NCBI GenBank assembly: GCA_002293375.1
Contig: DBDA01000021.1
Coordinates: 26,305 to 90,304 of the forward strand
DNA: 64,000 bases
From: Odoribacter sp. UBA944
Lineage (GTDB): Bacteria; Bacteroidota; Bacteroidia; Bacteroidales; Marinifilaceae
Reading direction: 5' to 3'
Shown in pieces: positions 25,655-47,090 of the stretch. Numbering within the stretch: the first letter of the stretch is position 1; each line of letters begins with the position of its first letter. The notes beneath the pieces are model-generated. The model searched no databases. It was not told the DNA's origin and saw only the letters and a program-made list of their open reading frames with translations. The position numbers and the translations under genes were made by a program.

Positions 25655-25672
25655 CGGAGACGGGTACGTTTT

Positions 25673-26785: not shown

Positions 26786-26788
26786 GAG

Positions 26789-27610: not shown

Positions 27611-27625
27611 TTAAGCGTTTTGGCC

Positions 27626-30600
27626 ATGATAAAAAGAGTACATTGGGTGATGTTGTTGCTGTTGCTGGCGTGGGGAGCGCAAGCGCAGGAGGAAGGAGCT
27701 GCCGTTAAGCTGGGAACCGGAGCGAAGGTGAAAAATACGATTATCTGGGGAAACAAAGGCATTCAGTTGAATCCGGAAGTTACTCCGGAAACTTCTCATA
27801 TTTTTGCACCGGGGGTGGCATCTCCCCTTTTCCTGGATTCGCTGAACGGAGATTTCCGTTTGAGAAAGGGGTCGCCCCTGATCGATTCTGCCGATGTGGA
27901 TACCGATGCCGGGATGGGCCTTTATTTTGATGAAAACGCCCTTGATTTATGGGGAAATCCCCGCCTGAGCGGTACGAAATTCGATATCGGGGCGCACGAA
28001 TACCGGCTTTATAAGATTAGGTTCATCAAGGCACCCGAGGTCGTTATTGAGCAGGTGGCGGTGGATGGGCATGCCAGTGACTCCAATGGAGTGCATCTGG
28101 GGGAGACCTATAAATTCAGGCCCGTGTACGACGGTATAACGGGAATAGAGACGGACCTGGTTATTGTGCGGGACCTTACTTCGAATGAACTGATACCGGA
28201 TGAGGACGGGTATTATTATATCAGGGACGTTCAAACAGATAAAGAGGTCGAGATCATTGTGACGCCTCCTATTTTTGTCCGGGCCATGAAGAGTGCGAAC
28301 GGAATAATAGCGGTGACCAGAGAGGATAACACTACTGTCTCGACGCTTGTTAAGGATACGGTTATGGTGGTGGAGGAGAACGAGGAGGTGCGTTTGGATA
28401 CGACGGCGGACGAGGGGTACTACTGTTACGATGTGTATGTGGCAGCAGATGCAACCGGGCCTTGGTCATCCATTAAAAGCAAGGTCGGTGCAGGAAAATC
28501 TTATGCCGTTACGGGGGATGTTTGGTTTAGAGCGGAGTTCCGGCCCCGGTCCATCTCTATTGAATTGGAGGTAAACGACAGAAGTCGCGGAACGATCACT
28601 GTGACCGACAATGATTCTCCTCCCAATACTTACACGTTGGATGCCGGGAATACCGGATCGGGGAGTTTTACCTATGCGCCCGACAGGAGTTTTTCCGTAA
28701 CAGTCGCCCCGGAAACCGGCTATGAGTTGTCCTCGTTGACGGTATACGACGCGGACGGGAGTTCAAATGCCGAAGTCATCACCGCCGCCAAAACAACGAA
28801 TATGAGGTTGAACGGGTTGGTGATCAAAGCCGTTTTTGTACCGCTTACATATACGGTAACCTGGGATCCGCTCTATGCGACGCTTGTTGTTACACCGGGA
28901 ACAATGGAAGTGAACCCGTCCGGCGGGTTTATGATCGAAGAGGTAGAATACAATACCACCCTAACCGTTACTGCAACACCAGAGGAGGGGTATAACGTTA
29001 CCGGACTGACGGCGAACGGATTGACTACGGGTGTCTCTGCGACCGGAACTCCTTATCAGTGGAGCTATGTTGTGAAGGGCAATACCGAATTGGATGTGAC
29101 AACCGACTTGCAAAAGCAGACGGTAACCATTACTTCCAATACGCCTTTGGTCTTAGCGAATACGTGGTCGACGGCCCCTGTTTTGACGGGCGCCGGGGGC
29201 GATGAAATAGCGTATGGGAGTACGTTGGAGATCACGGTGTCTCCGGCAACCGGCTATGAGTGCATCCGTGCGGTGGTGAACGGGGCGGCGCCTCAGGCGG
29301 TGACCGGAAATAAACTCACGCTGCCGGCAATTACTTCGGCCCAGACGGTGGAATTGCAGTTTACCCGCATCCCATACGAAGTAACCTATATCAATGCGAC
29401 CCCCACCATGGGGAGCCTGACGGTGAGTAAACAGGAGCCTGACGCCAGCGCCTGGACGGCTTTTGTGAGCAGTCCGGGCAGTGCGGCGTACGGGGATAAG
29501 ATCAAGGCGGAAGTTTCTCCGAATACCGGTTATAAGCTTAAATCCCTGACGCTGACCCCTGACGGGGAGGGCCCTGTGGATTATACGTCGGCAGGAACCT
29601 TTGCAGTGGACCTGGAGAAGGACCTCGCTATTGCGGCGGAGTTTGAGCCGATCCTGTATACTGTTACGTTGAGGAAGGTATATGATCCTGCGTATGCAGG
29701 GCCGGAAGTGACAGGTACGGCCCCGACTGAGGGGAAGGTGGAGCTGAAGGTGGGGGGAACTACCCGGTTGACGGTGGATTATTCGGATGCGGACCATACC
29801 GGGACGGTCCAGTTGCCTTACGGAACGGTGGTGCAGGTGGTCCCGACGACTAATGTGGACTATGTTACCGACAAAATAGAGGCGGACGGGACAGACATTA
29901 CAACTCTCCGGCAATTTACGGTGACGGGGGATGCGGAGGCCGATGTATGGATTGTATACCACAAGACCGATTTTGCGGTAACCTGGGAGACGGTTTACAC
30001 CGGTTTTACCAGTACGATCGATGTACAAAAATCAGGTGGGGGCACTGTTCTTAACGGCAGCAGTTATCCGACCGGTACTGCTTTGGAGGTGATTGTGGAC
30101 CAGCAGGCGGGGGAATTTTGTACGGGGGTTTTTGCCAACGGGGTCGATATTACCGGAACAGATCCAGTGGCGAATCCTCCCACGGCAAGTATTAGCGGGG
30201 AGGCGATCCACTTTACCGCCGAGTTTGTTAAAATGTGTCGTGTTAAAATTACACCTCCGACGGGGGGCACCATTACTGTGAAGGACGATAAGGGTACCGT
30301 TTATAACGACGGTGACCCGGTTCCGGCCGGTACGACGCTTAAGGCGACCCTGGTGACTACGCTTCCCGGTTATTATTGCACCGGGTTGACCGCCGAGGGA
30401 AATTCGTTGTATGCGTGGAGCGGAACCTCCACGACCTCTCCGCCCACGACCACCGGGGAGCAAACGTATACGATCCCTGTGAACCATGCAGGCGGTGATA
30501 TTTTGTTTACAGGGACCGCGGCAGAATACTACTGTGTCAGGTTTACCACACCGATTAACGGAACGCTGGCGGTTGAAGCCGACGGGACTGCCTTGTCTGC

Positions 30601-33600
30601 CGGAACGCAGTATTGGTATCCGAAGAATGCAGCGATCGGCATTACGGCGGAGAATACGACTACAGGGTATACATTGAATGCATCCCGTGTTGTAAACAAC
30701 GCGGCCGATGCTTCGACGATAGTGTTGGACGAGATCAGCGCCGACCACTACGGGTTGGCAGCTCCTTTGGGGTTGGTGAAAGAGTTGGACCTCTCTGCCA
30801 CGTTTGTAAAGAAGGAGTACGCTGTTACGTTGAATTTGACAGGCCTTGGAGCAGCAAGCCGGACTGATGCCCTGGCGGCTATCGGGTTTACGGGGACCGG
30901 AGCGCCCGATTTAGATGTATTGTGGGAAGATGCAACTGATATAAGTGTCACTGTGCAGGTGGCCCACGGGGATAAATTGACCTTGCGTGCGGAACCTAAG
31001 CCCGGTTTTGCTGCCAAGCTGCAATTCAACTCTGTGGACGAACTGTCTCTTACCATGAATGTGATCAATCGGACAACGCCTGCCATTACGGGGCCGATGG
31101 TGATAGATCTAATCTTTGAACAGACTTATCAGGTTGATTACGATCCGACAGATATTTTGAAAGTGACCAAGGGGGGGAATGCAGTAGTCCGAAATGCGTA
31201 TGTGTTTGCCGGCGATGTGTTGCGGGGCTATACGGTGACCCCGGCCGTTTCTGACAAGTACAACAAGCTGGTCGTTTACAACAGTAGCGGCATGTCGGAG
31301 TATGTCAGCGGTATGGCTACGCAAAGCGACGGCACCATTGAATTGGACTTTACGATGCCGGCTTATAACGTGTATCTGGATGCGGAAAAAGGGTTGAAAA
31401 CTTTTGATCTGTCCACTGACCTCACAGATCCTTCCCTTGCAGCTACCCTGACGGTAAATAACCTGAAGGGCGGCCCTCCGGTGGAAGTTGTGGCGGGCAG
31501 TGATGTCTTGGCGTACGGGGATGAATTGCGGGTGGATATTACTTTACCTGCCAATGACGACCCGGCGCTGGGCGCTTTGACGGAGTCGTTGTATGAGGTA
31601 AAAGCCGTTCGGGTAACGATGGGTGGAACCAATCTCTCCGGTTCTTTGTCCGGTTCCGGTCTGGCATATAGTTATGCGGTTCCGCTACCGGTTTCGGGAG
31701 ATGTGGCCGTTACCGTTACCCTTGCGCGTAAAAGGCAGCATCTTATTTTACGGGTTGTCCCGTCCGGCAGGGATTTTGGGATTGAATGGAGTTGCGATAC
31801 CCTTCCCGGAGGCGCGTGGACGACTCCGGTTGTCTACAAAGGTCCTGCAGCCCAAACAAGTATTTCGTTGCCGGTGGGCACGAAGGTCAAAGCACGGGCT
31901 GTCGGAAGCGAGGAGGGGTATGAGTTGGAGTTTTTCCCGACCAGCGGTCAACAAATAACGACAGAGATTGACCGACAGTTGCAACTTGGTGGGAGCCTGA
32001 ATTTGTCGGTTCGCTTCAGACAACAAACATTCCCGTTACAGGTTACGGTAAAACCGGCAGGAGGCGGAGTGTTGAAATGGAGTGGCAGCGAATTGGTCAC
32101 GCAACGGGTTGTGTACGGCACATCGCTTTCTTCCATTGTTCCCGAACCGCTGAATACCTATTTCCGGTTGGATTCGGTAACGGCCTATATGGGTGGGGTC
32201 AATTTGTTCAAGAATCAGGTGTCTCCTTATGAAATAAGCAAGGTAACCGATTCGGTGGGTATTGAGATGCGTATGACCCGCCTGTATAAGATCCAGAAGG
32301 ATGTAGTGGGTGCCGGAGATATCGAGATACGCGAATTTGGGCAATCGGTTTCTGCCGTAGACGGTTTGTTTCCGGCGAATACCATTTTTCAGATAACGGT
32401 TTCCCCTCAGGACGACAGTTATGAATGTGTTTCCTTGCAGGCAATGCACTCGATGGGGGGTAATGCATTTATTCCGTCCGCCGGGGGATTGTATAGTATT
32501 AACCCGAGTTTAACTCAATACGATATTGTTATCCGGGCGGAATTTGCTTTAAAGACGCACGAAGTTTTCGTTCAGCGCGAACCTGTCGGAGGAGGGAATG
32601 CCGTTTTGTACCAAGGGGATAAAAGTAGCGGGGGAATTTTGTTGCTGGAGTTGGCGAACGATGATCCGCAGACGGCGACCATGCCGGTGTTGGTGGAGCA
32701 CGGGACTACTCTGCATTTTTATGCGGAACCTAATGGAGCGGATTATGAGGTTGCTTCCCTTGTGACAGGCGCAAACACGCTTTATACCCAGGGACAGCTG
32801 GTGGTGGTTACTTCGGATACCGTTTTCTCTGTGTCGTTCGGACGATTGTACCGGTTGCAAATTTTAGATGATAGCGTACAGGTGTATACATCCGGCGGGA
32901 TTAAACTTCCTGCGGACACGATGCTTGCGGAGGGTACGCCGTTGTATTTTGCAGCCAGCCGGTTTGGGAAGGCGTATACGGAGGTGACCCTCCGGGAGAC
33001 GGGAGCGGACCCGGCGGATCCAGCCCTGGAAGCGTGGACGACGGCGACCGACGGGGTGATCGAAGACCATTTTGAGATGCCGGGAGTCGATGCCGAAGTG
33101 AACGGCGCCAGCGATTGGAAGCGGTATACTGTACGGTATTCCGTTGCTCCCGATCCCCACGATGTACCGTCCGGAGATGGACAGTCTGCTATTACTGTAC
33201 GCTCCTTTACCGGTGTGTCGCCGGGAGTGCCTGTCGCCAATGGCGGTTCGGTGCAGCACGGAGATTCTTTGGAGGTGGTGCTGACCCCCCATGCCTGGTA
33301 CGATGTTGTGTCTATGACGGCGACTGTGGACCGTGTGCCGGCCGGTGTAAAATCGGGGGCGGATACGTTGCGGATCGCGGAGGCGCTGGGCGATGTGGAG
33401 ATAGCGGGTGTGGTGCTACGGAAGCAGCAAAAACTTTACATTTACCTGGAGGAGGAGGCGCTGGCTGATGGAGATACTGTCCGGGTGATCACGGAAGATG
33501 GAATACGGCATGACTATTTGGTATCAGACAGTTTGCCGGTAGATGTTGGTTCGAAAGTGGTTGTACAGGCTTTGTCCGGCTCCGCTTGTGTTATGGATTC

Positions 33601-35824
33601 GTTGATCACCGATCTGGGTGGGCGAGTCGTTGCTAAACCTTTTGAAACGACATTTGATATGCCGGTTGACAAAACGGCTTCGGTGACTGCTTATTTTTCT
33701 CTAAAAGAGTATCCGGTGCTGTTTGCGACTACTGAGGGAGGTACGATCATGGTTACGCCGACCTTTGACGGGGCGGTCGGTTCCCCGATAGACTCCGGAG
33801 ATTTGGTCAAACATTATACCGAATTGGCGATTTCCCTGACTGCGACGAGTGCTTCGTATATTTACCGGCCAGGCAATTTTATTACCCGGGTGGGAGCGAA
33901 TGTGGCTGCAAATCCCGCTGTGGTGCCTTCCGTGACGGATACGGTGCGGATTGAGGCGACGTTTGAACGGGTGTACGAGGTACGGGTGGTTCAACCGGAT
34001 GTGAAGCAGGGAACGCTGACTATTGCTTATGCGGGTAACAGTGCGGTGGGGAAACGGTATCTGGCCGGTACGGAGTTGGATGTAGCGCTTGTTCCACAGA
34101 CGGGGTATGAAGTAACCGGGCTTTTCATGAACGGGGTTTCGCAGGCGATCCTCCCGGCAGGCGGTGTTATTGTGTGTGAAGTTCCGGACAATCCGGCGGT
34201 GGATAGCGTAGAGTTTACGGTTACGTTGGCGGTGAAGCAGTATGATATTAAATATTTTGTATCCGGGAACGGTTCTTTGGCGGTGGAAGGGATGGCCGGC
34301 GGCCGGGTACTTTATAGCGATGTGAGCGGGGTGAGTCGCGCTGTTTCTCATTTCGATACGCTCTACCTGGAGGTGTCTCCGGGCTCTCCGGCTTACCGGG
34401 CGGTGAGGTATATTGTGAACCTGCCCGACGGAACTCCCCTTCCGGTGACGGCGACGGATACTGCGATCGTGGTGACGGGAAACCTGACTGTGGAGGTGGA
34501 ATTCGAGAAACAGTACGTAGTCATGTTTGAACAACCGCAGCAATTGCCGCGCCCGGAGGGCACTCTTACTGTTACACAGGACGGGCGGAACATCACTTCC
34601 GGGGAGTATGTGTGGGTGCCGCAACTTCAGAGTACCGGTTCGTTGTCTATAGACCTGGTTGAAGGGGAGGGGTATGATGTGGAGTTCCTGACGGTAAACG
34701 GTGTGGCGGTCAGCCAGCCTTTCGGGTTTGGATTTGCGAAAGAGGAGTTGTTCGATACCATTGTGATCGATGCGCAGTTGAAAGTCCGGGAACTTACCGT
34801 GGCGGTTGTTCAGCCCGCTTATGGAAAGATTGATTTGGTGGAACGGTCCGTTGATGATGGGGCGACCTGGCAGCCTTTGCCGGTGTTGACGCCTGTTACG
34901 GTGGATTATTGGGATCAGATCCGCGCTTTTGTTACTGTGGATGATCCCGCCCAGTTCCGGACGGATCACCTGTCGGTTGTGTCGGCGAGCGGTACGGGTT
35001 CGTTGCAGGAAGGGGTGGCGTGGACGATGAAGGAGGATGTGGTGTTGGAGGCGGTGATCATTCCCAACACGTATACTGTTTATTACGAGCAGCCGGACAA
35101 CGGGGCGTTGTGGGTGGAAACGTTGAACGGGGATACGGTTCGGGATGGCGAAGCGGTTTATTACCTGACGAAATTGATCGTCCGGGTGCAATTGGACGAC
35201 GAGGTCGGGTATGAATTGGCGGAGTTGACTGTTGATAATGTGGGGGTGGATGACCAGGATACCGTTACGGTGGAAGCAGATATGTATGTGTTTGCCCGGA
35301 TCGCCCTGCGTACCTGGGAGGTAACGACTTCGGCTACAGGACAGGGAGTTATACATGTTTACGATGAGCATGGATATGAGATATCTTCCCGGGCCGATCC
35401 CGGGTTGGTGAACCATTATGAGCGATTGCAGATCTCGTTCCGGCCGGCTGCGGGTTGGATGCTTTATGCACACGATTTGACCGGAACAGCTATGCAGCTC
35501 GACTCTACTTTTGTGGTGGAGGGGCATGTGGCGATCTTTGCGGATTTCCGGCAGATGGAGGAGTATCAGTTCCCGGCTGTTTTTACGCCGAACGGAGATG
35601 GTCAAAACGATACCTGGCAGGTGAAAGGTCTGTGGCAGGATCCGGAGAATACGTTGGAGATCTACAACCGGATGCAGCAACGGGTGTATAAGGTTTCGCC
35701 TTACCTGAATGAGTGGAACGGAACGACGGATGACGGAACGATCCTTCCGGCCGGGCATTACATCTATAAGTTGACGACCGGGAAAAAGGTGCATACGGGG
35801 ATCGTCTCTATTGTGAGAAATTGA
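27626..35824 (+). CDS. giant T9SS type B CTD surface repeat protein (SprB-like cargo)
   Basis: The track ORF is 27620..35824 (2734 aa, TTG). An ATG at 27626 gives 'MIKRVHWVMLLLLLAWGAQAQ'. After the signal peptide there is a beta-helix closing cap ('GDFRLRKGSPLIDSAD...DLWGNPR...FDIGAHEY'). About 25 divergent ~90-100-aa beta-sandwich repeats follow, each with a 'P..GY.(V/L)..L..NG'-type signature that resembles divergent InlB B-repeats. The C-terminus is a T9SS type B sorting domain. Confidence 0.85.
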   Translation: MIKRVHWVMLLLLLAWGAQAQEEGAAVKLGTGAKVKNTIIWGNKGIQLNPEVTPETSHIFAPGVASPLFLDSLNGDFRLRKGSPLIDSADVDTDAGMGLYFDENALDLWGNPRLSGTKFDIGAHEYRLYKIRFIKAPEVVIEQVAVDGHASDSNGVHLGETYKFRPVYDGITGIETDLVIVRDLTSNELIPDEDGYYYIRDVQTDKEVEIIVTPPIFVRAMKSANGIIAVTREDNTTVSTLVKDTVMVVEENEEVRLDTTADEGYYCYDVYVAADATGPWSSIKSKVGAGKSYAVTGDVWFRAEFRPRSISIELEVNDRSRGTITVTDNDSPPNTYTLDAGNTGSGSFTYAPDRSFSVTVAPETGYELSSLTVYDADGSSNAEVITAAKTTNMRLNGLVIKAVFVPLTYTVTWDPLYATLVVTPGTMEVNPSGGFMIEEVEYNTTLTVTATPEEGYNVTGLTANGLTTGVSATGTPYQWSYVVKGNTELDVTTDLQKQTVTITSNTPLVLANTWSTAPVLTGAGGDEIAYGSTLEITVSPATGYECIRAVVNGAAPQAVTGNKLTLPAITSAQTVELQFTRIPYEVTYINATPTMGSLTVSKQEPDASAWTAFVSSPGSAAYGDKIKAEVSPNTGYKLKSLTLTPDGEGPVDYTSAGTFAVDLEKDLAIAAEFEPILYTVTLRKVYDPAYAGPEVTGTAPTEGKVELKVGGTTRLTVDYSDADHTGTVQLPYGTVVQVVPTTNVDYVTDKIEADGTDITTLRQFTVTGDAEADVWIVYHKTDFAVTWETVYTGFTSTIDVQKSGGGTVLNGSSYPTGTALEVIVDQQAGEFCTGVFANGVDITGTDPVANPPTASISGEAIHFTAEFVKMCRVKITPPTGGTITVKDDKGTVYNDGDPVPAGTTLKATLVTTLPGYYCTGLTAEGNSLYAWSGTSTTSPPTTTGEQTYTIPVNHAGGDILFTGTAAEYYCVRFTTPINGTLAVEADGTALSAGTQYWYPKNAAIGITAENTTTGYTLNASRVVNNAADASTIVLDEISADHYGLAAPLGLVKELDLSATFVKKEYAVTLNLTGLGAASRTDALAAIGFTGTGAPDLDVLWEDATDISVTVQVAHGDKLTLRAEPKPGFAAKLQFNSVDELSLTMNVINRTTPAITGPMVIDLIFEQTYQVDYDPTDILKVTKGGNAVVRNAYVFAGDVLRGYTVTPAVSDKYNKLVVYNSSGMSEYVSGMATQSDGTIELDFTMPAYNVYLDAEKGLKTFDLSTDLTDPSLAATLTVNNLKGGPPVEVVAGSDVLAYGDELRVDITLPANDDPALGALTESLYEVKAVRVTMGGTNLSGSLSGSGLAYSYAVPLPVSGDVAVTVTLARKRQHLILRVVPSGRDFGIEWSCDTLPGGAWTTPVVYKGPAAQTSISLPVGTKVKARAVGSEEGYELEFFPTSGQQITTEIDRQLQLGGSLNLSVRFRQQTFPLQVTVKPAGGGVLKWSGSELVTQRVVYGTSLSSIVPEPLNTYFRLDSVTAYMGGVNLFKNQVSPYEISKVTDSVGIEMRMTRLYKIQKDVVGAGDIEIREFGQSVSAVDGLFPANTIFQITVSPQDDSYECVSLQAMHSMGGNAFIPSAGGLYSINPSLTQYDIVIRAEFALKTHEVFVQREPVGGGNAVLYQGDKSSGGILLLELANDDPQTATMPVLVEHGTTLHFYAEPNGADYEVASLVTGANTLYTQGQLVVVTSDTVFSVSFGRLYRLQILDDSVQVYTSGGIKLPADTMLAEGTPLYFAASRFGKAYTEVTLRETGADPADPALEAWTTATDGVIEDHFEMPGVDAEVNGASDWKRYTVRYSVAPDPHDVPSGDGQSAITVRSFTGVSPGVPVANGGSVQHGDSLEVVLTPHAWYDVVSMTATVDRVPAGVKSGADTLRIAEALGDVEIAGVVLRKQQKLYIYLEEEALADGDTVRVITEDGIRHDYLVSDSLPVDVGSKVVVQALSGSACVMDSLITDLGGRVVAKPFETTFDMPVDKTASVTAYFSLKEYPVLFATTEGGTIMVTPTFDGAVGSPIDSGDLVKHYTELAISLTATSASYIYRPGNFITRVGANVAANPAVVPSVTDTVRIEATFERVYEVRVVQPDVKQGTLTIAYAGNSAVGKRYLAGTELDVALVPQTGYEVTGLFMNGVSQAILPAGGVIVCEVPDNPAVDSVEFTVTLAVKQYDIKYFVSGNGSLAVEGMAGGRVLYSDVSGVSRAVSHFDTLYLEVSPGSPAYRAVRYIVNLPDGTPLPVTATDTAIVVTGNLTVEVEFEKQYVVMFEQPQQLPRPEGTLTVTQDGRNITSGEYVWVPQLQSTGSLSIDLVEGEGYDVEFLTVNGVAVSQPFGFGFAKEELFDTIVIDAQLKVRELTVAVVQPAYGKIDLVERSVDDGATWQPLPVLTPVTVDYWDQIRAFVTVDDPAQFRTDHLSVVSASGTGSLQEGVAWTMKEDVVLEAVIIPNTYTVYYEQPDNGALWVETLNGDTVRDGEAVYYLTKLIVRVQLDDEVGYELAELTVDNVGVDDQDTVTVEADMYVFARIALRTWEVTTSATGQGVIHVYDEHGYEISSRADPGLVNHYERLQISFRPAAGWMLYAHDLTGTAMQLDSTFVVEGHVAIFADFRQMEEYQFPAVFTPNGDGQNDTWQVKGLWQDPENTLEIYNRMQQRVYKVSPYLNEWNGTTDDGTILPAGHYIYKLTTGKKVHTGIVSIVRN
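35564..35821 (+). other. T9SS type B C-terminal sorting domain (gliding-motility-associated CTD / CHU_C type) of the giant protein
   Basis: 'YQFPAVFTPNGDGQNDTWQVKGLWQDPENTLEIYNRMQQRVYKVSPYLNEWNGTTDDGTILPAGHYIYKL' matches the hallmark 'F(T/S)PNGDGxND.W.I.G......(I/V).NRWG..V......W(D/N)G......(L/V)P.G.Y.Y'. Confidence 0.9.
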
Positions 35825-35868
35825 CGGGAGGCATGAGTCAGTGAGTTATAATTTAAAATCAGCATGTG

Positions 35869-38800
35869 ATGGGAACCATTCGACAGTATTTGTTGTTTTT
35901 GTTGCTTTTTGTTCCTTTTTGGGCAGATGGCAATAATGTTCGTGTGGTGGGTGTTGTTCGAGCCCCTGCGGATTTGCTTTCCGGCGGTGTAGCGACGATC
36001 CAGCTTACTTTGGAATGGGAGAATTCGTGGCGCGATGATTATAATCACGATGCGATCTATCTTTCTCTTCGCTACAAGGTATTGAGTGAATCGACGGTAG
36101 AGTGGCGTCCTGTTTATTTGCAGGACGGCGGTCACAGTGCTACGAACGGTTATGTCTATACGCTTTCTCCGGGCAGTGTATCCGGGCGTAACGCGGGTAT
36201 TTTCATTTATGCGGGGAGCGCCCGAACGGGAACCGCCCGAACCGCCGTTTCTTTGAAGTGGGATTATGGTACGACGACCGATCTGGAGGCGTTTCAGTTC
36301 GCTTCCTCCGATGTCGTGATCGCCTGTACGGGGATCGAGATGGTCTATATTCCCCGTGGCGCCTATTCTTTGGGCGATTATGCGAATACGCAGGACTCTT
36401 CTCAGTGGAATTTCCGCCAACGTGATTTTTACATTCCGGATTCTCTGAATTTGGTCAGTACGCAGTATGTGATCATGTCTCCGGAGTCTGTGGCGAGCAA
36501 TCCTCCCCATCTTGCGGCCAACCGTATCAACGATATCTCCGGTGTCGGCAGTGACGGGAGTATTACGAATGCCTGGATCGCCAACTCTACGGAGGCGACC
36601 CTTTTGTGGACGATCGATTTTGGCCGGCTGATCGGTCCCTCCGGCGACACGACAGAACTTCCTCCCGCCTCCTCTATTCGTCGGGTGGAGTACATCTCTT
36701 TGGAATCCCTTCCCGGTTACGCTCCTGCTGAATGGAGCTTTTGGGGTAATCGGGACAATCCCCTCACGGGCAGTTCCCCCTGGGAGGAGCTTTATCGCGG
36801 AACTTCTTCGGATTGGAATACGAGCCTTGAGCGTGTCTATCCCGGTCAGAAGCTGGTCCGTCTTCCGGCTCCCCGTAACTTTCGGGCGTACCGTATCATC
36901 GTCAATCGGGATCAAATGCCTGCGGGGCGCTCTCCTGTCCTGAAGACGGTCGCGATGGCTGACACTGCGCTCAGCCGGATTTTTGACCATACTTTTGTTG
37001 TAGATACAGTGGTTACCCGCATCGGTGGCGTTTACGGCCTTTTTTCCAATGACGGCGAGGTTAGCTGGAATACTTCCAGCACCCTTCCTTCGACCTATCC
37101 GAACGGTTACAACGCTTTCTATGTTATGAAGTACGAAATGTCCCAGGATCAGTATCGTGGTTTTTTGGGTATGCTTACCCCTTCGCAACAGCAACAGCGT
37201 ACTCTTGGCGCCTCTCTCGACGCCCTGGATCCTTTGGATAACCGGTATGTTTTCGGCAGCGACCCTACGCAGCCCAATTTCCGCAACGGTATCGTTGTGT
37301 CTTCCCGCAGTGATCAGGGCGATACCGTGGCTTTTGCCTGTGATCTTAATCGTGAGAACGGTGTTGCCGCGGATGGTGACGGCCAGGCTCTCGCTTGCAA
37401 TTACCTCACCCCGTTAGACATGCTTTCTTACGCAGCTTGGGTGGGTCTTCGTCCTTTGAGCGAATTGGAATACGAACGGATCTCCCGTGCGCCTTATCCT
37501 TACGTTCCTTCTGTGCGCGAGTGCGCCTGGGGAGGTGTTGACGCCATTCCTCCTTCGGGGTTGATGGACGGCGGTAAGATCAACGAACGCTTTTCGACGG
37601 GTAACATCAATTTTAACAAACGTCTTCCGGGCCCTTCCCGGGTGGGGATCTTTGCTTTGGAGGGTAATAGCCAATCGGCTTCCGGATCAAGTTTCTGGGG
37701 TGTGCATGATCTCAGCGGTAACCTGAGTGAACTGTATTACAACGTTAGTTCCACAGGGCGTACCTTCAATGCCACACGTCATGGCAACAGCGTTCACGAG
37801 TCCCTCAGTACGCTTGATGTTTGGGGGTGGGACACAACCTCCTCCTCTTTCGGTCTTCGGGGAGGTAACTTCCTGAGTACGATGGATATTGAGTTGGCAG
37901 TATCCGACCGCCGGAATGCTGTTCGGCACATCCGCAAGAACGACTTCCGGGATTCTACGGTGAGTTTCCGTCTTGGACGCAGTGTTCCGGAAGGCCCCAA
38001 ACTTTCGAGTATTCTTACGCTTGAGAATGGTCGTACAACCTCTTCCGGCAGCGTATCCGACACGGTATGTGACGGTTCCGATTACCACATCGTCGGTAAC
38101 AGCCCTCCCGGCACTTATGCGCTTTATTTCCTTTGGTACCGCAGCGAGAATTTGGGTAAGACCTGGGATTTGGTACGGGGTGAAAACGGCAGCGACCTTT
38201 TCTTGGAGGGGTTGACGAACCGCGGTATGCGGGCAGGTGTTTTGCATGAATACTGGTTTAAGCGTAAGGCTATTCGCGACAACAGCGATGGGGTGAGTTC
38301 TGTCGTAAAGATCGTTGTCGCAAATCCGTCTTATACCGTGAGCCGTCTTCGGGATACGATCGACGGTTACGGGAAGGGTGCGGGTATAACGGTAATAACG
38401 CGTTACCCGACTCAGTTTGAGTGGCGTTATTTGGCTACCGGGGCTGTTCTTCCGTCGACGAACAGCAGCACGCAGAGTTATTACCTTCCGGATCGGGCTC
38501 ACCTTTCCGATGGAACGGGTAAGCCCATGCACGGGAAGCGTACGGTGATGGTTACGATGCGGATCGCAGATGCTTGTGAGCGCAGTGAGATTATCGAGGT
38601 GGATGTGATCAATACGATGGACAAGGATATCATGAAGGTGAAGGATTATGGCGGTTACCGCGGTTGGGGCGAGGGTACGTATGCCCCGAGTTGTGAGGGT
38701 TACCGGCGGCCAACGGGTGGTTATGAGTACCGGGGGGATATCGGCAGCGGGATCTACCGGATCGATCCGGACGGAAGGCACGGTCCTTTACGACCGTTCG

Positions 38801-39246
38801 ACATTGAGTGTGACATGACTACAGACGGCGGAGGATGGTCGATTCTTCGTACGAATACGCCGAGAACACGACGTAGGGGATATGAAGGAGGCGGTCATGT
38901 GATTTTCTCGCATCTGCCTTACTCTGCAGTCGGGGTTGTCACAACGGAAGCACAGATTGTCGGTTTACGAGCGGTTTCGACATCTGGTTACCAATATGTA
39001 AAAAAAGAGTGTTTACACTGTGCAATGAGTTCCAGTTTGTGGTATACATACGGTTCTGGAGGTAGTATCTCTTATACGAATTGGCCGAATTATGCGAATT
39101 GCAGTCCCAATGACCAAGTTTGGCGGGAAGCATCCGGGAATATAACGAATGTAAACTATATCCCGGTCAGACAATTTACAGGGGATGATACGGGTGACAG
39201 TGTCGAAGATGCATATTATACTTTTGGAGACGTGTATTTCCGGTGA
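35869..39246 (+). CDS. GldJ-fold scaffold paralogue A, fibrinogen-like C-terminal head
   Basis: 1125-1126 aa (GTG at 35866 or ATG at 35869) with an SPI-type signal peptide. N-module 'NNVRVVGVVRA...LEWENSWRDDYNHDAIYLSLRYKV'. The FGE-sulfatase fold opens with 'GIEMVYIPRGAYSLGD' and resumes at 'FYVMKYEMSQDQY' ... 'LRPLSELEYERISR' ... 'FWGVHDLSGNLSELY' ... 'VSFRLGR'. The nested insert is 'NAWIAN...LWTIDFG...VEYISLES...EWSFWGN...FRAYRIIV'. The head carries 'SGIYRIDPDG...PFDIECDMTTDGGGWSILR'. Confidence 0.8.
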   Translation: MGTIRQYLLFLLLFVPFWADGNNVRVVGVVRAPADLLSGGVATIQLTLEWENSWRDDYNHDAIYLSLRYKVLSESTVEWRPVYLQDGGHSATNGYVYTLSPGSVSGRNAGIFIYAGSARTGTARTAVSLKWDYGTTTDLEAFQFASSDVVIACTGIEMVYIPRGAYSLGDYANTQDSSQWNFRQRDFYIPDSLNLVSTQYVIMSPESVASNPPHLAANRINDISGVGSDGSITNAWIANSTEATLLWTIDFGRLIGPSGDTTELPPASSIRRVEYISLESLPGYAPAEWSFWGNRDNPLTGSSPWEELYRGTSSDWNTSLERVYPGQKLVRLPAPRNFRAYRIIVNRDQMPAGRSPVLKTVAMADTALSRIFDHTFVVDTVVTRIGGVYGLFSNDGEVSWNTSSTLPSTYPNGYNAFYVMKYEMSQDQYRGFLGMLTPSQQQQRTLGASLDALDPLDNRYVFGSDPTQPNFRNGIVVSSRSDQGDTVAFACDLNRENGVAADGDGQALACNYLTPLDMLSYAAWVGLRPLSELEYERISRAPYPYVPSVRECAWGGVDAIPPSGLMDGGKINERFSTGNINFNKRLPGPSRVGIFALEGNSQSASGSSFWGVHDLSGNLSELYYNVSSTGRTFNATRHGNSVHESLSTLDVWGWDTTSSSFGLRGGNFLSTMDIELAVSDRRNAVRHIRKNDFRDSTVSFRLGRSVPEGPKLSSILTLENGRTTSSGSVSDTVCDGSDYHIVGNSPPGTYALYFLWYRSENLGKTWDLVRGENGSDLFLEGLTNRGMRAGVLHEYWFKRKAIRDNSDGVSSVVKIVVANPSYTVSRLRDTIDGYGKGAGITVITRYPTQFEWRYLATGAVLPSTNSSTQSYYLPDRAHLSDGTGKPMHGKRTVMVTMRIADACERSEIIEVDVINTMDKDIMKVKDYGGYRGWGEGTYAPSCEGYRRPTGGYEYRGDIGSGIYRIDPDGRHGPLRPFDIECDMTTDGGGWSILRTNTPRTRRRGYEGGGHVIFSHLPYSAVGVVTTEAQIVGLRAVSTSGYQYVKKECLHCAMSSSLWYTYGSGGSISYTNWPNYANCSPNDQVWREASGNITNVNYIPVRQFTGDDTGDSVEDAYYTFGDVYFR

Positions 39247-39310: not shown

Positions 39311-42300
39311 ATGAACCGTTTTTTATTAGTTGTTTTGTTATCTGTTTCGGGAAAGGTACTTTTTGGCGACAATTTGCATTTCTCGGAGGTCCGTGTAGTT
39401 TCCGCGTCGGATACGGAGGCTGCGTTGGAGTTTGTTGTTTCCTGGAACAACTCCTGGCGAACGGCTTCCAATTTGGATGCGGTTTATCTGTTCGGGAAGT
39501 ACAAGTTCTCCGACTCTTCGGATTGGCACCATCTTTATTTTACAACAATTGCTGCCGACCACACTTCGGATGCCGCTACGGAACAGCTTCCTGTTAACGG
39601 TGGTCGTGGTCTTTTTGTTCGCCGTTCTGCCAGTGGCCGCGGTTCTGTACAGGCAACTCTTCAATTGAAGGTGAACCTGCTGGGGAATGTTTTGCTTCCG
39701 CTTACGGCCTCTGCCATCACTTCCGGCGATCTCCTTTTTTCGATTCAGGGGATTGAAATGGTGCTGATCCCTGCGGCTTCTTTTTACGCGGGCGATCAAG
39801 AGGCCTCCGGCGCTTTTTCCAATGCTGCCTTTGGAACGATCCTGCCGGAATATGATCTGATCCGTATAGATTCGGGTTATGTTTACTCTTCCAACGGCTC
39901 TGAGAGTATGAATGCTTCTCGTGTTGCCAACCGCCACAAACAGGGAGTCTACGACGCCTCCGCCCGTTTAGATTGGTGTGGGACGGCCATTCCGGCTATG
40001 TGGCAGGTGGATTTTAAGACGGCTAAAAAGATCCTTTATTTTGGTGTTTCCGGTGTTTCGGGTTTGAGTTGGGGCGGTTTTCCTCCGGCACCTGCGGGGG
40101 ATTGGTTTCTGGAGGGTTCCAATGATAACTCCGTTTGGATGGAGTTGTGGCGAGGTGATCCAACGTATTGGGGGCAGTCGGCGGTATCTTATCCGGTTCA
40201 GGCGATTCGAGTGAGTACCCCGGGCAGTTACCGGTATTACCGGATCCGCGTTACAGACAACCAGTGTTCTGCTTTGTGGAATAACATCCGCATCAATAAT
40301 GTGGGGATGACGGAGAACGATCTTTCGAAAATCTCCGGCGATGCTTTCCCTGTCCGGATCGCGAATGAAAATACCATTCTTCCCACATACTACCCGTCCG
40401 GTTTTCACGGTTTTTATGCGATGAAATACGAGTTGAGCCAAGAACAGTATGTCAATTTTCTGAATATGCTTCCGCGTTCGGCACAATACGAGCGTACGAT
40501 GGGCGGTTTGCTGGACGGTTTGGAAGAAGGAGAGTATATTTTCGGCGACCGGCGGGATGCACCCTCTTTCCGCAACGGGATCATTTTGAAACAGAAATAT
40601 CCGAATACCGGATTGCCGTATGTTTTTGCCCATGACCTTACCGGGACGGATTTAGATAATTCCGGGACGGACGGTCAGACGGTGGCCTGCAATTACCTTT
40701 CTCCGTCCGATATGTTGGCTTATGCGGAGTGGAGCGGGCTGCGGCCTTTGAGTGAATTGGAGTACGAAAAGATGTGCCGGGGAGCTTTTCCGGAGGTGCC
40801 GAAGGGCGGATCCTTTGCTTGGGAGTGGAGTGAAGTAGAACCGTTAACGGATGTGGTCCGTTTGGGTGAACCGGAAGAGGCGCTTTTACCCGGTAGCACG
40901 GCAAATGCTAATCTTGACGGCGGATCCAACACCGTCGGCGCTCCTGTTCGTGTGGGGCTTTTTACCCGTCCGGGGGAGCGAAAACAGGCGGGGCTTTCTT
41001 ATTGGGGCGTTTCTGACCTGACGGGCAATTTGAGCGAGATATACTGCAATACCGGCGTGTATGGACGGCAGCAGAATCGTGCGGTACACGGCGGCGGGCG
41101 ATTGGATGCAGACGGCAGACACGTTGTTCCCGGTACCGATTGGCCCCGTGAAAAAGATGCATACGGTGTTCGCGGAAGCGACTATGCGACTCCGGTAAGC
41201 GAGGCCTCTGCTTTTGAGCGCCGCCGTGCCGAAGGTTATTTTACAGGTATGGCCGAACGCTTGCCCATAACCGGTGTCCGTTTGGGTTTTTCGACAGAAC
41301 CGGTTCGTATGGTTGCGCACTTAACGTTGGAGAATGGTTTGCGTTCTTCTTCCGCTTTGGTATACGATACGGTTTGCGCTTCGCTTGCCTACTGCATAAA
41401 GGGAGAGAGGATCGGTGCTCCGGAGGCTTCTGTCAAGTACCTTTGGTATGAGAGCACGGACGACGGCGTTTCCTGGCAATTATTGACGGAAGCAGGGTGT
41501 GATCTCATCCTCCGGAACCTGACGGATCGTGTTCCGGAGAATACAGTTCGCTGTTTCCGGTACAAACGGATCGGTGTGGCGTTTGAAGAGATGTCTGAAA
41601 CGGGAACGGTTTGTTTGGTTGTGGCGCATGGTTATACTGTTAATCGTTTTTCCGACACCATTCGCCCTTGCATGCTTTCTAACGAATTTCAAATTACGAC
41701 GCCCCTGCTCTCTACATTTGAATGGCGGTGCGTGGAGAGTGGAAAACGATTGGCTTCTTCTACGTCCCTTGTTTCTTCGTACGCGATTCAGATGGACGAT
41801 TTGAAAACCGATCCGACGGAATTTCCCAGCGGTAATTATAGTGTTCATGTTAACATCCTCATGGCCGATAAGTGTGTCAGCGACCTTTCTTTGCGGATTG
41901 ATGTTATTCCTGAGACTGTTTCTCCTTTTAAAAGTTCGGCTGATGTATCCTATGTGTATGGAACCAATACATTGGAACTGAATGATAATTGGGGTGGTCC
42001 GGATCGGCAGCAATGGAGTATTGTGGGCGGGAATTATGGAGATCTGTCTGTGAGTGCAGTTGGTGTTTTAAGCGGGATTGCTACTACTTTTCTGCGGGTG
42101 GAAGTAGAAGCTGTTTGCCGGGATTTTCCGGATCGGGTATACCGGAAAAGATGGTTAGAGACGCTCCGAAGCCTTTCTTATACGGGAGGTGTACAGCAGA
42201 TGGCGCTTCCCGGCGGCACTTTCCAACTGGAGTGTTGGGGGGCGCAAGGAGGAACTATGGAATCCGGCTGGACCGGCATAGGCGGATACGGGGGATATAC

Positions 42301-42931
42301 TAAGGGAAAATTGACGTTGGAAGCATGGCGGATGTTTTATGTGTATGTAGGCGGATCGGGACAGGGCTACAATTCAGGGCGCTCCACGCATGCGGGTGGT
42401 TGGAACGGTGGAGCTGCCTGTTATGGCGGCGCTTCCGGCGGGGGTGGCGCTACGGATATTCGAGTGACGGGCGGGGCGTGGAATGATGTTGCCTCGCTTC
42501 GCAGCCGGATCATGGTGGCTGGTGGCGGGGGCGGTTCCAATGACAATCAAAACGGTGGAGCGGGTGGTGGTTTAACCGGCGGTATCGGCGCCTGTTCCAG
42601 CGGATCCGCTGCTTCCGGTGGCACTCAGACCAGCGGTGGAACCGGGTGGGTAAACGGATCGTTTGGAACCGGCGGTGGTTCTCCCAACAATTACAGCGAT
42701 GGCGGGGCTGGCGGCGGTGGGTATTACGGCGGCGGAAAATCCAGCGGGAGCTCTTGTGCAGGAGCAGGCGGTTCCTCTTTTGTCAGCAATTATGCAGGGT
42801 GTAATGCGGTAAATGCTTCCGGAGTACACACCGGACAATCCGGGCATTTCAGCGGGTTGCTCTTTTCCGAAACGGGTATAACGGCCGGGCAGCGAACCGG
42901 CAACGGAATGATGAGAATAACATATCAGTAA
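39311..42931 (+). CDS. GldJ-fold scaffold paralogue B, glycine-rich C-terminal head
   Basis: 1206 aa with a signal peptide. N-module 'DNLHFSEVRVVSASD...VSWNNSWRTASNLDAVYLFGKYKF'. Split FGE fold ('GIEMVLIPAASFYAGD' ... 'FYAMKYELSQEQY' ... 'GLRPLSELEYEKM' ... 'YWGVSDLTGNLSEIY' ... 'GVRLGFS') with the insert 'WQVDFKTAKKILYFGVSGV...WFLEGSNDNSVW...YRYYRIRV'. The C-terminus is 'CWGAQGG...GGYGGYTKG...VYVGGSGQGY...GGGGATDIRV...RIMVAGGGGGS...'. Confidence 0.8.
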   Translation: MNRFLLVVLLSVSGKVLFGDNLHFSEVRVVSASDTEAALEFVVSWNNSWRTASNLDAVYLFGKYKFSDSSDWHHLYFTTIAADHTSDAATEQLPVNGGRGLFVRRSASGRGSVQATLQLKVNLLGNVLLPLTASAITSGDLLFSIQGIEMVLIPAASFYAGDQEASGAFSNAAFGTILPEYDLIRIDSGYVYSSNGSESMNASRVANRHKQGVYDASARLDWCGTAIPAMWQVDFKTAKKILYFGVSGVSGLSWGGFPPAPAGDWFLEGSNDNSVWMELWRGDPTYWGQSAVSYPVQAIRVSTPGSYRYYRIRVTDNQCSALWNNIRINNVGMTENDLSKISGDAFPVRIANENTILPTYYPSGFHGFYAMKYELSQEQYVNFLNMLPRSAQYERTMGGLLDGLEEGEYIFGDRRDAPSFRNGIILKQKYPNTGLPYVFAHDLTGTDLDNSGTDGQTVACNYLSPSDMLAYAEWSGLRPLSELEYEKMCRGAFPEVPKGGSFAWEWSEVEPLTDVVRLGEPEEALLPGSTANANLDGGSNTVGAPVRVGLFTRPGERKQAGLSYWGVSDLTGNLSEIYCNTGVYGRQQNRAVHGGGRLDADGRHVVPGTDWPREKDAYGVRGSDYATPVSEASAFERRRAEGYFTGMAERLPITGVRLGFSTEPVRMVAHLTLENGLRSSSALVYDTVCASLAYCIKGERIGAPEASVKYLWYESTDDGVSWQLLTEAGCDLILRNLTDRVPENTVRCFRYKRIGVAFEEMSETGTVCLVVAHGYTVNRFSDTIRPCMLSNEFQITTPLLSTFEWRCVESGKRLASSTSLVSSYAIQMDDLKTDPTEFPSGNYSVHVNILMADKCVSDLSLRIDVIPETVSPFKSSADVSYVYGTNTLELNDNWGGPDRQQWSIVGGNYGDLSVSAVGVLSGIATTFLRVEVEAVCRDFPDRVYRKRWLETLRSLSYTGGVQQMALPGGTFQLECWGAQGGTMESGWTGIGGYGGYTKGKLTLEAWRMFYVYVGGSGQGYNSGRSTHAGGWNGGAACYGGASGGGGATDIRVTGGAWNDVASLRSRIMVAGGGGGSNDNQNGGAGGGLTGGIGACSSGSAASGGTQTSGGTGWVNGSFGTGGGSPNNYSDGGAGGGGYYGGGKSSGSSCAGAGGSSFVSNYAGCNAVNASGVHTGQSGHFSGLLFSETGITAGQRTGNGMMRITYQ

Positions 42932-42937: not shown

Positions 42938-45900
42938 ATGAGTTGGATTAAACGTTTGTTTGTTTGGGGTGTCAGTCTCTGTGTATTTCCATTATATGGC
43001 GACAATTTGCATTTCTCGGAGGTCCGTGTAGTTTCCGTATCGGATACGGGAGCTGCTTTGGAGGTTACTGTTTTCTGGAGCAATTCCTGGTGCCACTCTT
43101 ACAATCACGATGCGGTATATCTGTTTGGCAAGTACAGCGAGGATGAGATTTCGGGTTGGCGTCATGCTTTCTTTTCTTCGGATGTTTCCTCTTATAGTGT
43201 TTCTGAAGGTTATAGTGTAACGCCGACCTCTGATGGTCGTGGTTTGTTGCTTCGTCGTACCTCTTTTGGGAGCGGAACTTCTGAGGCGACGCTCCGTTTG
43301 ACCTGGTCTCTTTCGGGCAATGAGCTTTCTGTGGTGTCTGCCTCTTCCGTTCTTTCGGGTGCTGTCCGTTTTTCTCTTCAGGGCCTTGAAGTGGTTTATC
43401 TTCCTCCCGGCCCCTTTTATGCGGGCGACGGGGTTTCGGAATCCTCCTTTTCGACCTCTTTTTTCGGCGGTATACCTTCGGAGAGCGATCTTATCGGCAC
43501 GGATGCGAGCTATGTTTACAGCGCGAACGGTAGCGAATCTTCGGGCGTGCATGCCGGCCGTGCTGCGGACCGGTACAACCAGGGAGTTTACGATGCCTCT
43601 TCCCGTCACGACTGGTGCGGTACGGTTCTTCCGGCAACCTGGCAGGTAGATTTCGGCCGCGCGAAGAAGATCCTGTATTTTGGTGTTTCGGGGGTCTATC
43701 CCGACAACATCCCTCCGGCTCCTTCGGGTACGTGGTACTTCGAGGGTTCTACGGATGGTTCTTCCTGGTCCCCTCTTTGGAGCGGCGGTCCTGAGTATTG
43801 GGGTCAGTCCCGCATCTCTTATCCTGTTCAGCAGGCGCTCCGTGTTGTTTCCCCGGGTTTGTACCGTTATTACCGTATCCGTGTGGATGGGAGCCAGCAG
43901 GCCGGTTACTGGAACACGATCCGGATCTCCAATGTGGCGATGACGGAGGATGATCTGTCTCTTCGTCCGACGGACCAAGCTGTTTTGATGGACGGTTTCC
44001 ACCCGGAACTTCCCTCTTCTTATCCATTGGGTACGGAAGGCTTCTATGCGATGAAATATGAGTTGACCCAGGAGCAGTATGTGACCTTTTTGAACCAGCT
44101 TCCCCGTTCAGCTCAATATGCGCGCACTATCGGCGGTGTGTTGGACCGTTTGGAAGAGGGTGATTATGTTTTCGGTGGCCTTCCGGGTTCTTCTTCCCAC
44201 CGCAACGGTATCGTTGTTCACGATCGGCGTTTGAACAGCGGTCTTCCGATTGTTTTTGCGTGTGACCTGGATCGTTCCAATCCCGCTAACGGTTCCTCCG
44301 ACGGTCAGTCGGTTGCCTGCAACTACCTGAGCCCCGCGGATCTGCTTTCCTATGCAGAGTGGACCGGTTTGCGCCCTATGAGCGAATTGGAATACGAGAA
44401 GATGGGCCGCTCCTTTTCCCCTGTTTCCGAGATTGGTGCTTTCCCTGCCTGGGGGAGCGCGCTTTACGTTCCGGGTACGGATCTCTCCTCTGCGGGAACT
44501 TCGCTTGAAACGGCTGTTCCTTCCGATGCCAATGTGAATGCGGAGGGTCATCTTCCCGGCCCTCTTCGTTCTGGTTCTTTTACTCGGGGTGGCAGTCGTT
44601 TTGAGTCCGGTATCTCTTTTTGGGGTTTGTCGGATCTGAGCGGTAACCTGAGTGAGATTTACTGCAATACGAACTCCTGGGGCATTCAGTTGTCGCGTTT
44701 TGAGCATGGCGGGGGTGAGGTTACTTCAGATGGGAAGCATCAGATTTCCGGCCTGTATTGGCCTTCCCATCCTCTTGCTTACGGCTGGCGTGGCGGGGAT
44801 TACGGTTCCGATCCTGTCGCTCTTTCTCTTTCCTATCGGGGTCGGTCTTCCTCCGGTGTTTATGACGATCTGTCGCTTCGTTTTCCTGTGGCGGGTATTC
44901 GTTTGGGTCTTTCATGGTCTGATCCTGTTGGTCGTTCGGAGTTGTTGCTTGGTAACGGTCTTTTGACGGGTGTTTCAGAGGTATGTGATACGGTTTGCGA
45001 CGGTACGGCGTATGAACTTCGGGGTGTTGATGTTCCGGGTTCCGATCCTGCCGTTTACATTTGGTACGGCAGTGACGATGGGGGTATTAGTTGGCAGAAC
45101 CTGCATGTGAACAGTGCTGTTTTGCGTCTTCCGGATCTTGTTTCCCGTGTATCTCCGGGTAGAGTGGTTTCTTTCCGGTACCGGCGTGTTGTTTATACGT
45201 CTTCGGGTCTTTTGGAGAGTGGGGTTGCTGTTTTGGTTGTCGGCCGGGGGTATACGACGGATCGTTTGTCGGATACGATTCGTCCCTGTATGGTTTCGGA
45301 GGGTTTTCATATTACGACGCCGCTGCCGGCAACGTTTGAGTGGAGATATATAGAGAGCGGCAAACAGGCAGCAGCAGTTTCTACCCCTTTTACGTCTGCC
45401 TGTTTTGTTCAGGTGGCGGATTTAAAGGAACGGCCTGAGGAGTTTCCGAGTGGCAACTACAGACTTGATTTGAAAATAAACACAGCGGGAAGATGTATTG
45501 ATAACCTTTCTTTGCAAGTGCATGTTACGTCGAATACGGTTTCTCCGTTTACGAAATCGGAAGAGCCGTATGTTTATGAATCCAATACGTGTATCCTGAA
45601 TGAAAAATGGGGTGGGCCGGACCGGCAACATTGGAGTATTGTCGGCGGCGGATATGGAAATCTGTCTATTGATGAAGCTACGGGAGTGTTAAGCGGTATC
45701 ACCACTACTTTTCTGCACGATGTTGTGGTAGAGGCTGTTTGCCGGGATTATCCGGACAGGACCTATCGGAAAACAGTAACAGAAACGGCCCGGATCATCT
45801 CTTATGTGGCGGCGGCGCAGCCCCTCGTTCTTCCTGCAGGAACATACAATATAGCGTGTTGGGGAGCGGATGGGGGGATGGGTAACGGAGGTTCGAATCC

Positions 45901-47013: not shown

Positions 47014-47045
47014 TTTGGGATTGCGATTAATTCTATTTAATTTTG
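47014..47045 (+). promoter_or_regulatory. candidate Bacteroidota sigma-A promoter (-33 TTTG / -7 TAATTTTG) for the D-E-F-giant unit
   Basis: TTTG at 47014-47017 and TAATTTTG (TAnnTTTG) at 47038-47045 are separated by 20 bp. They sit at the 3' end of a 472-nt strongly AT-rich gap, about 46 nt upstream of the ATG at 47091. Confidence 0.45.
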
Positions 47046-47090
47046 GTGGTAAGATTGAGGAGTATGTGTATCGATAGTGGAAAGAGACAA

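Follow-up and report, generated by a model that had tools for sequence, protein, structure and literature searches.

In the present work, we describe six paralogous genes, named here A to F, in a 64,000-nucleotide stretch of the genome of Odoribacter sp. UBA944 (contig DBDA01000021.1, positions 26,305 to 90,304; this whole stretch is referred to below as the window). The six co-directional, closely spaced open reading frames (ORFs) occupy positions 35866-58054 on the + strand and encode proteins of 1126-1230 residues, with B-F being 31-34% identical to A. Their products are Sec-exported, non-lipoprotein, multi-domain proteins, and in each of them a discoidin domain appears to be inserted into a domain that resembles formylglycine-generating enzyme (FGE). 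The best explanation overall, which we hold to be very likely, is a discoidin domain nested in a non-catalytic FGE-like (C-type-lectin-like) fold, with a single origin in Odoribacter and a proposed function as a binding repertoire.

Discoidin domain within the FGE-like fold

In A, a signal peptide is followed by an N-terminal beta-sandwich, the FGE-like fold with the nested discoidin domain, two immunoglobulin (Ig)-like domains, and a C-terminus similar to fibrinogen and procollagen C-propeptides. The six genes and the parts discussed here are as follows (aa, amino acids; pLDDT, predicted local distance difference test):

35866-39246, + strand: paralogue A, 1126 codons; likely start at the ATG at 35869
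36331-36378, + strand: FGE b1-b2 hairpin of A, GIEMVYIPRGAYSLGD (aa 156-171; pLDDT ~96); FYxMKYE starts at 37117, 261 aa after the hairpin start at 36331
36379-37089, + strand: nested insert of A (aa 172-408, 237 aa); discoidin core ~36418-36915
37090-37977, + strand: rest of the FGE-like fold of A (aa 409-704), without a catalytic cysteine pair after RGG
39311-42931, + strand: paralogue B; hairpin 39749-39796, FGE remainder 40385-41287, ALK/LTK glycine-rich C-terminus; FYxMKYE starts at 40412, 220 aa after the hairpin start at 39749
39797-40384, + strand: insert of B (196 aa); discoidin core 39869-40357
42938-46618, + strand: paralogue C; hairpin 43382-43429, FGE remainder 44015-44908, ALK/LTK glycine-rich C-terminus; FYxMKYE starts at 44042, 219 aa after the hairpin start at 43382
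43430-44014, + strand: insert of C (195 aa); discoidin core 43487-43963
47043-50630, + strand: paralogue D; hairpin 47580-47627, FGE remainder 48276-49187, FISUMP C-terminus; FYxMKYE starts at 48303, 240 aa after the hairpin start at 47580
47628-48275, + strand: insert of D (216 aa); discoidin core 47730-48191
50666-54331, + strand: paralogue E; hairpin 51131-51178, FGE remainder 51845-52762, FISUMP C-terminus; FYxMKYE starts at 51872, 246 aa after the hairpin start at 51131
51179-51844, + strand: insert of E (222 aa); discoidin core 51188-51745
54362-58054, + strand: paralogue F; hairpin 54851-54898, FGE remainder 55550-56494, FISUMP C-terminus; FYxMKYE starts at 55577, 241 aa after the hairpin start at 54851
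54899-55549, + strand: insert of F (217 aa); discoidin core 54977-55465

The first motif, G/A-(I/L)E(M/V)V(Y/L)(I/V/L)P...GD (the GIEMVYIPRGxFxxGD type), is present in all six proteins, and the second, F(Y/F)xMKYE(M/L/I/V)(S/T)Q(D/E)QY, follows 219-261 residues later. The FGE-like region closes at an (F/V/I)RL(G/A) strand, which ends at 37977, 41287, 44908, 49187, 52762, and 56494 in A to F, respectively. A preliminary description of this DNA, made from the sequence alone, reported the wide separation of the two motifs together with a table of fold starts, resumption points, and ends; the distances measured here bear it out, and its table agrees with ours within a few bases in all six ORFs.

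The same description assigned the N-terminal IEMVYIPRG segment to the first strands of the FGE fold, and profile comparisons support this assignment. The gathering score of the FGE-sulfatase family PF03781 is 23.3 bits. The native proteins reach 22.7 (A), 22.4 (B), 20.4 (D), 22.0 (E), and 24.3 bits (F), with no match for C, and these matches begin at profile positions 19-36, downstream of the insert. When the insert was removed in silico and the hairpin joined to the post-insert part, the score of A increased by 7.5 bits (22.9 to 30.4) and that of F by 8.5 bits (30.3 to 38.8), while the start of the match shifted from profile position 35 to position 4. Short-loop relatives score 42.7-56.4 bits, and one of them, P0078, with a natural loop of 42 residues, gives a continuous PF03781 match over profile positions 4-255. 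In alignments made with the family profile and with the F chimera, MVYIPRGxFxxGD runs collinear with MVAIPGGTFRMG of Thermomonospora curvata FGE. Mean identity among A-F is 60% in the hairpin, 45% in the FGE body, 37% in the N-terminal domain, 33% in the insert, and 30% in the Ig-like region; moreover, over 108 long and short relatives, conservation of the hairpin residues E, M, V, Y, P, and G is 90% or higher. Because of the gain after insert deletion, the P0078 match, the alignment with FGE, and this conservation, homology of the hairpin to FGE b1-b2 is secure.

The AlphaFold2 model of A, which covers aa 22-720, has a pLDDT of 93.3 and a predicted template modelling score (pTM) of 0.92, with a pLDDT of ~96 in the hairpin. 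In Foldseek searches, it matched the FGE structures 6xtq, 2q17, 6muj, and 5nyy (E 4e-6 to 4e-5, probability 1.0, TMt ~0.5). From sequence and model together, we infer that the hairpin (aa 156-171) repacks with aa 409-704 into one fold in the long forms. The discoidin domain would then sit in the loop that connects the b1-b2 hairpin to the strand leading into the first helix. It is very unlikely that there is no nesting, namely that the hairpin has become part of the N-terminal beta-sandwich and that the order is N-terminal domain, discoidin domain, and an N-terminally truncated FGE-like domain. Such an arrangement would agree with a model strand of 13 residues (model residues 129-141) that is continuous from the end of the N-terminal domain into b1, and with the position of the hairpin outside the Foldseek FGE alignments. 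However, FGE profile positions 4-25 are covered by the hairpin, which contributes ~8 bits once juxtaposed with the rest; it lies within the continuous FGE match of short-loop relatives, it is the most conserved segment, and the pTM of 0.92 indicates a single rigid assembly.

The insert had been described as discoidin/F5-8-type-C-like from its residue pattern, and this was confirmed by profile searches and by the predicted fold. A profile of 24 insert sequences, compared with PDB sequences, matched the F5/8 type C domains of the GH92 entry 7nsn (E 1.3e-9), factor VIII C2 (~2e-3), the CASPR2 discoidin domain (0.025), and also neuropilin b-domains. Against 1.84 billion representative proteins, this profile retrieved the nested family first and then many unrelated proteins with 2-12 tandem copies; these non-nested proteins were matched at E down to 4e-37. 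PF00754 (F5_F8_type_C, gathering score 28.2 bits) matches all eight non-nested examples scanned, seven of them above threshold, and two database relatives, P0060 and P0061, carry a precomputed PF00754 match. For the A model, Foldseek also returned a discoidin class (4lqr, 4lks, 2xqx, 4zxe, 7d29, 5y4m, and 4oyu; TMt 0.6-0.8, probability 1.0), the matches including structures of CBM32, muskelin, APC10, and CASPR2. As judged from profiles and model, the insert of 195-237 residues is a complete discoidin (F5/8 type C, CBM32-like) domain, consisting of the discoidin core with short flanking or linker strands, of which those on the C-terminal side are missing in B and C. The jelly-roll fold and core motifs are shared with known members such as factor VIII C2, CASPR2, Clostridium perfringens CBM32, and GH92 7nsn; those domains are usually tandem or terminal, whereas the one in A-F is nested and stays below threshold in Pfam. 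The N- and C-termini of the discoidin fold lie close together, which makes this domain suited to insertion into a loop.

Several observations weigh against the reading of A-F as nested, exported binding proteins. The native proteins score at or below the PF03781 gathering score (20.4-24.3 versus 23.3 bits), with none for C, and the Foldseek alignments with FGE are local (~350 columns), cover the post-insert part alone, and do not bridge the insert. On isolated inserts, PF00754 gives 22.5 (B) and 22.4 bits (C) against the required 28.2, with no match in A, D, E, and F. In the profile scan proposed in the preliminary description, the native PF03781 matches are thus sub-threshold or borderline and post-insert only, and PF00754 falls below gathering in two paralogues and is missing from the other four. 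A hidden Markov model (HMM) built exclusively from 181 discoidin segments that are not nested gives scores of 37.7-85.8 bits for A-F (residues ~175-383), with shuffled controls at 5.4 bits or less, but it is not fully independent because its segments were first selected with the insert profile. Finally, neither a type A (Por_Secre_tail) nor a type B (CHU_C) domain of the T9SS (type IX secretion system) was detected in A-F by Pfam at E up to 1, and the lipobox is absent from A-F as is the T9SS C-terminal domain; A-F could thus be periplasmic rather than surface-exposed.

Host domain among FGE-like proteins

The preliminary description had called the host domain GldJ/GldK-type, and this label did not hold. 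The window encodes a GldJ of its own (ORF 2980-4491, - strand), recognized by TIGR03524 at 462.1 bits against a cutoff of 458.2; it barely passes this equivalog cutoff and has 503 aa against the 559 positions of the model. In this protein, LVFIPGGTFILG (residues 68-79) stands ~33 residues ahead of SFYIDEHEV (residue 100), and the earlier statement that canonical GldJ keeps the two motifs close is correct. BLASTP of A against the window GldJ returned only tiny motif matches (best E 0.28), which is why the label was dropped. Furthermore, the GldJ/GldK/PorK models TIGR03524, TIGR03530, and TIGR03525 gave no match for A, B, or D at E 1e-3, and the family profile matches PorK at E 2e-4 and true FGEs, to which it is at least as close, at E 1e-7. 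When the N-termini of A-F were judged by eye (...FWADGNNVRV, ...LFGDNLHF, ...VWGNNIRI, and similar), no canonical lipobox was seen.

It is highly improbable that A-F belong to the gliding/T9SS machinery as periplasmic, GldJ/GldK-like paralogues with a track or hub role. The presence of gldJ in the same window, the PorP/SprF gene and the adhesin with a type B C-terminal domain at the locus, and signal peptides without a surface-sorting signal would fit such a role. Nevertheless, matches to the GldJ/GldK models, similarity to the window GldJ, and a lipobox are all missing, A-F have the lectin-like tips and Ig-like stalks that typify extracellular proteins, and some family members are T9SS type A cargo, as is the case for P0103.

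FGE carries a copper-binding cysteine pair after an RGG(S) motif. Within 30 residues after RGG/KGG, no cysteine is found in any of the six paralogues, which indicates that the fold is a non-catalytic scaffold. Canonical FGE (SUMF1; PDB 6muj, 2q17, and 5nxl) shares with A-F the overall fold (Foldseek E ~4e-6) and the motifs MVxIPGGxFxMG, FxxxxYEVT/S, WaGxRLPTEaEWE, and GNvxEw, but differs in having the catalytic cysteine pair and a b2-b3 loop of ~20 aa, compared with 195-237 in A-F. Some short relatives are automatically annotated as 'formylglycine-generating enzyme' or as 'SUMF1/EgtB/PvdO family nonheme iron enzyme', and such names would agree with A-F being active formylglycine-generating or SUMF1/EgtB/PvdO-type enzymes targeted to their substrate by a carbohydrate-binding module. 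We regard this as extremely unlikely, as the position of the Cu-binding pair after RGG is without a cysteine in every paralogue, and the FGE matches are weak and limited to scaffold motifs. The host domain forms part of a distinct clade, whose members are non-catalytic, are not lipoproteins, and have an N-terminal beta-sandwich of their own.

Inserting domains into FGE-like folds is not new, because it has been published for PorK, GldK, and GldJ. The FGE-like fold of PorK contains the insertion domains InsH (150 aa, in the H-helix) and InsV, and insertions in the V-helix and in the B-loop are predicted for GldK and GldJ (PMC12421860). In PorK, InsH and variable regions mediate PorK-PorK and PorK-PorN contacts, and the variable region VR1 is one of the regions that line the substrate groove in FGE and contact PorN in PorK (PMC12421860). 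Similar to A-F, these Bacteroidota proteins (PDB 9mzu; PMC12421860) have an FGE-like scaffold without catalytic cysteines that takes large inserts, and they are linked to T9SS and gliding. Their inserts lie in the H-helix, V-helix, and B-loop and are not discoidin domains, whereas A-F carry a whole discoidin domain after b2, upstream of the H-helix; A-F also differ in being non-lipoproteins and in having an N-terminal beta-sandwich, Ig-like domains, and lectin-like tips. By position, and not by alignment, the insertion loop of A-F would correspond to PorK VR1. The general principle is therefore already known, and it is the site, the discoidin insert, and the protein family that differ here. 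The novelty suggested in the preliminary description for GldJ/GldK relatives was too broad with respect to FGE-like insertions as such (PMC12421860), and it stands for a discoidin domain at the site after b2: no literature link of FGE-sulfatase with a discoidin domain of this kind was found in the searchable library, where FISUMP likewise returned nothing.

Origin of the insertion and short-form relatives

A homologue search over 5.8 billion proteins found ~75 full-length relatives (1079-1258 aa), three of ~900 aa, and many of ~500 aa; they all contain the N-terminal domain and the hairpin as well as the FGE-like body. The spacing from the hairpin to FYxMKYE is bimodal in 120 database homologues (212-261 residues in long forms and 42-97 in the others) and again at 84 genomic loci (193-256 and 58-96), which argues for a single discrete insertion. 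Together with the occurrence of both motifs in all six ORFs, this bimodality upholds the domain-in-domain nesting that had been claimed for every paralogue. Loci with long match spans (L022, L026, L035, and others) were considered as candidates for other large inserts, and they turned out to be tandem short genes.

The long class is confined to Odoribacter genomes and metagenome bins, where it forms tandem arrays of two to four genes. Culturomica, O. lunatus, and certain Odoribacter bins contain forms of ~850-980 aa that have the Ig-like region and a C-terminal tip but lack the insert. Every module yields one and the same paralogue tree, in which B groups with C, E groups with F, and D is closer to E and F than to others, so the insertion is read as one event that preceded the duplications. 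It arose once, in an Odoribacter lineage, before the duplications that built the array. By then, the host protein already combined an N-terminal beta-sandwich and the FGE-like domain with two Ig-like domains and a lectin-like tip at its C-terminus. No recent gene conversion or cassette arrays were found among the A-F genes; their DNA repeats, where aligned, do not exceed 83% identity and represent old paralogous similarity, and megablast of 36331-37980 against plasmids gave no match. A long-form subgroup from uncultured Odoribacter (L006-L008; MGBC162966 / MGBC152178) has a shorter spacing of 193-201 residues, and its hairpin, IEMV(L/Y)(I/V)PY(G/N)(A/S)YYLG, resembles that of the insert-free medium forms; this subgroup may be closest to the ancestral insertion event.

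The short forms (~500 aa, 'SUMF1/EgtB/PvdO family') are clearly the parent family of A-F. They are 30-40% identical to A-F and share with them the N-terminal domain (NNxxV...WxNSWRD...NxDAxW) as well as hairpin and FGE-like body; in contrast to A-F, their loop has 42-97 aa, and they lack the discoidin domain, the Ig-like domains, and the tip. This family is spread over Bacteroidota, Ignavibacteria, Omnitrophota, and Verrucomicrobiota. At all three loci checked (L083, L087, and L088), the short-form gene is followed by one that encodes a small Por_Secre_tail protein (T9SS type A C-terminal domain), with two consecutive such pairs in L083 and a faint tail match in L088. This pattern points to a conserved two-gene module.

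One insert-free relative with a FISUMP tip, P0075 of O. lunatus, is encoded at a locus of a different kind (L089, CALPCZ010000035.1, 2684-7607). About ten repeats of the 3' end of its gene follow downstream at intervals of ~280 nt, and the copy at 5085-5270 is 94% identical to that 3' end, with the mismatches in a 49-nt core falling at adenines. Downstream of these cassettes lie a bAvd gene, a reverse transcriptase gene (RVT_1), and a gene for a giant Ig protein. In sequence, the locus looks like a diversity-generating retroelement (DGR) with an unusual array of cassettes resembling template and variable repeats (TR/VR), and the FISUMP tip of P0075 appears to be its target, which argues for ligand binding by the tips. 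DGR variable proteins with C-type-lectin or FGE-type folds are a related system, and the FISUMP tip of P0075 is likewise followed by TR-like cassettes, bAvd, and reverse transcriptase. The window is unlike a DGR system, with no DGR between F and the next gene and with diversity residing in six old paralogues.

C-terminal tips, locus context, and proposed function

The model of A residues 701-1126 (pLDDT 89.5) comprises two Ig-like domains and a C-terminal domain resembling procollagen C-propeptides. This C-terminus (38650-39243) matches the bacterial fibrinogen-like YCDxxxxGGGW model, and its nearest structure is that of trimerizing procollagen C-propeptides (5k31, E 1e-8); the likeness of predicted fold hints that A may form trimers. 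The C-termini of B (42200-42931) and C (45830-46618) contain the ALK/LTK-type glycine-rich domain PF12810 (130-140 bits), which is best known from animal receptor kinases, while D, E, and F end in FISUMP domains. In D, the annotated TTG start puts 16 extra residues ahead of a typical signal peptide (MGRKLPLLLLL...), and the true start is probably an internal ATG near 47091; this would leave an intergenic gap of ~470 nt after C, the sole sizeable one in the array.

The array is flanked by genes of the following kinds:

22490-23497, + strand: PorP/SprF-family T9SS outer-membrane carrier, first gene of the co-directional block
27620-35824, + strand: protein of 2734 aa, C-terminal T9SS domain of the CHU_C kind (type B), directly upstream of A
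58092-64000, + strand: start of a giant Ig-repeat protein, frame open to the window end (>1969 aa); 6611 aa in L085

Between the PorP/SprF gene and that of the 2734-aa protein lie four genes, one with a weak DUF1565 match and three without a family match, and the block at 22490-35824 (+ strand) resembles an SprB/SprF-type adhesin operon. The arrangement of a CHU_C giant followed by the paralogue array is kept in another genome (L081), and paralogue F is also present in an assembly from a termite-gut metagenome.

In the function that we propose, the FGE-like fold would serve as a rigid scaffold or docking hub, by analogy with PorK, and would present the discoidin domain from the loop after b2. 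The nested discoidin domain and the interchangeable tip (fibrinogen-like, FISUMP, or ALK-type glycine-rich) would create two ligand- or glycan-binding sites per paralogue in a fixed geometry, and sugar may be bound by the discoidin or by the FGE-like module. With two proposed sites in each paralogue, the array would supply a repertoire of binding specificities, acting together with the neighboring giant T9SS adhesins. Thus, the likely role of A-F is multivalent ligand binding beside a giant T9SS adhesin.

The main functional rival, possible yet doubtful in our view, is that the insert is a protein-protein bridge comparable to PorK InsH and not a sugar-binding module, so that A-F oligomerize or dock via the discoidin domain and the FGE-like fold is a pure hub. 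The contacts made in PorK by the 150-aa InsH and the variable regions (PMC12421860) speak for it, as do the protein-binding modules among the Foldseek discoidin matches (muskelin, APC10, and BIRC6) and the likeness of the A C-terminus to a trimerizing procollagen C-propeptide. On the other hand, by sequence the insert is closest to F5/8 type C repeats of the galactose-binding CBM32/NedA kind, and its site is unlike that of InsH, which sits in the H-helix.

It has also been considered that A-F serve the flanking giant T9SS adhesins as interchangeable adaptor heads, with hard-wired paralogues having replaced the tip variation by DGR seen in O. lunatus. In that case, the FGE-like scaffold would dock the adhesin or the PorP/SprF carrier, much as PorK docks PorN, and the nested discoidin domain and swappable tip would form a two-site recognition unit. 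We find this improbable; if true, the paralogue array would provide, in the germline, an alternative to a DGR.

The finding of a discoidin domain nested in a non-catalytic FGE-like fold is architectural and rests on a predicted structure; proteins commonly carry domain insertions, and the finding settles no open question. Its meaning lies in the FGE-like scaffold, recently recognized as a docking hub with insertion sites, which takes up a complete, independently folding domain at a further port, the loop after b2. The nested form belongs to a widespread family with an N-terminal domain and an FGE-like domain, the members of which are probably mislabeled as enzymes by automatic annotation. Within this family, one gut or termite-gut lineage of Odoribacter has developed from the scaffold a modular repertoire of putative binding proteins, located between two giant adhesins.

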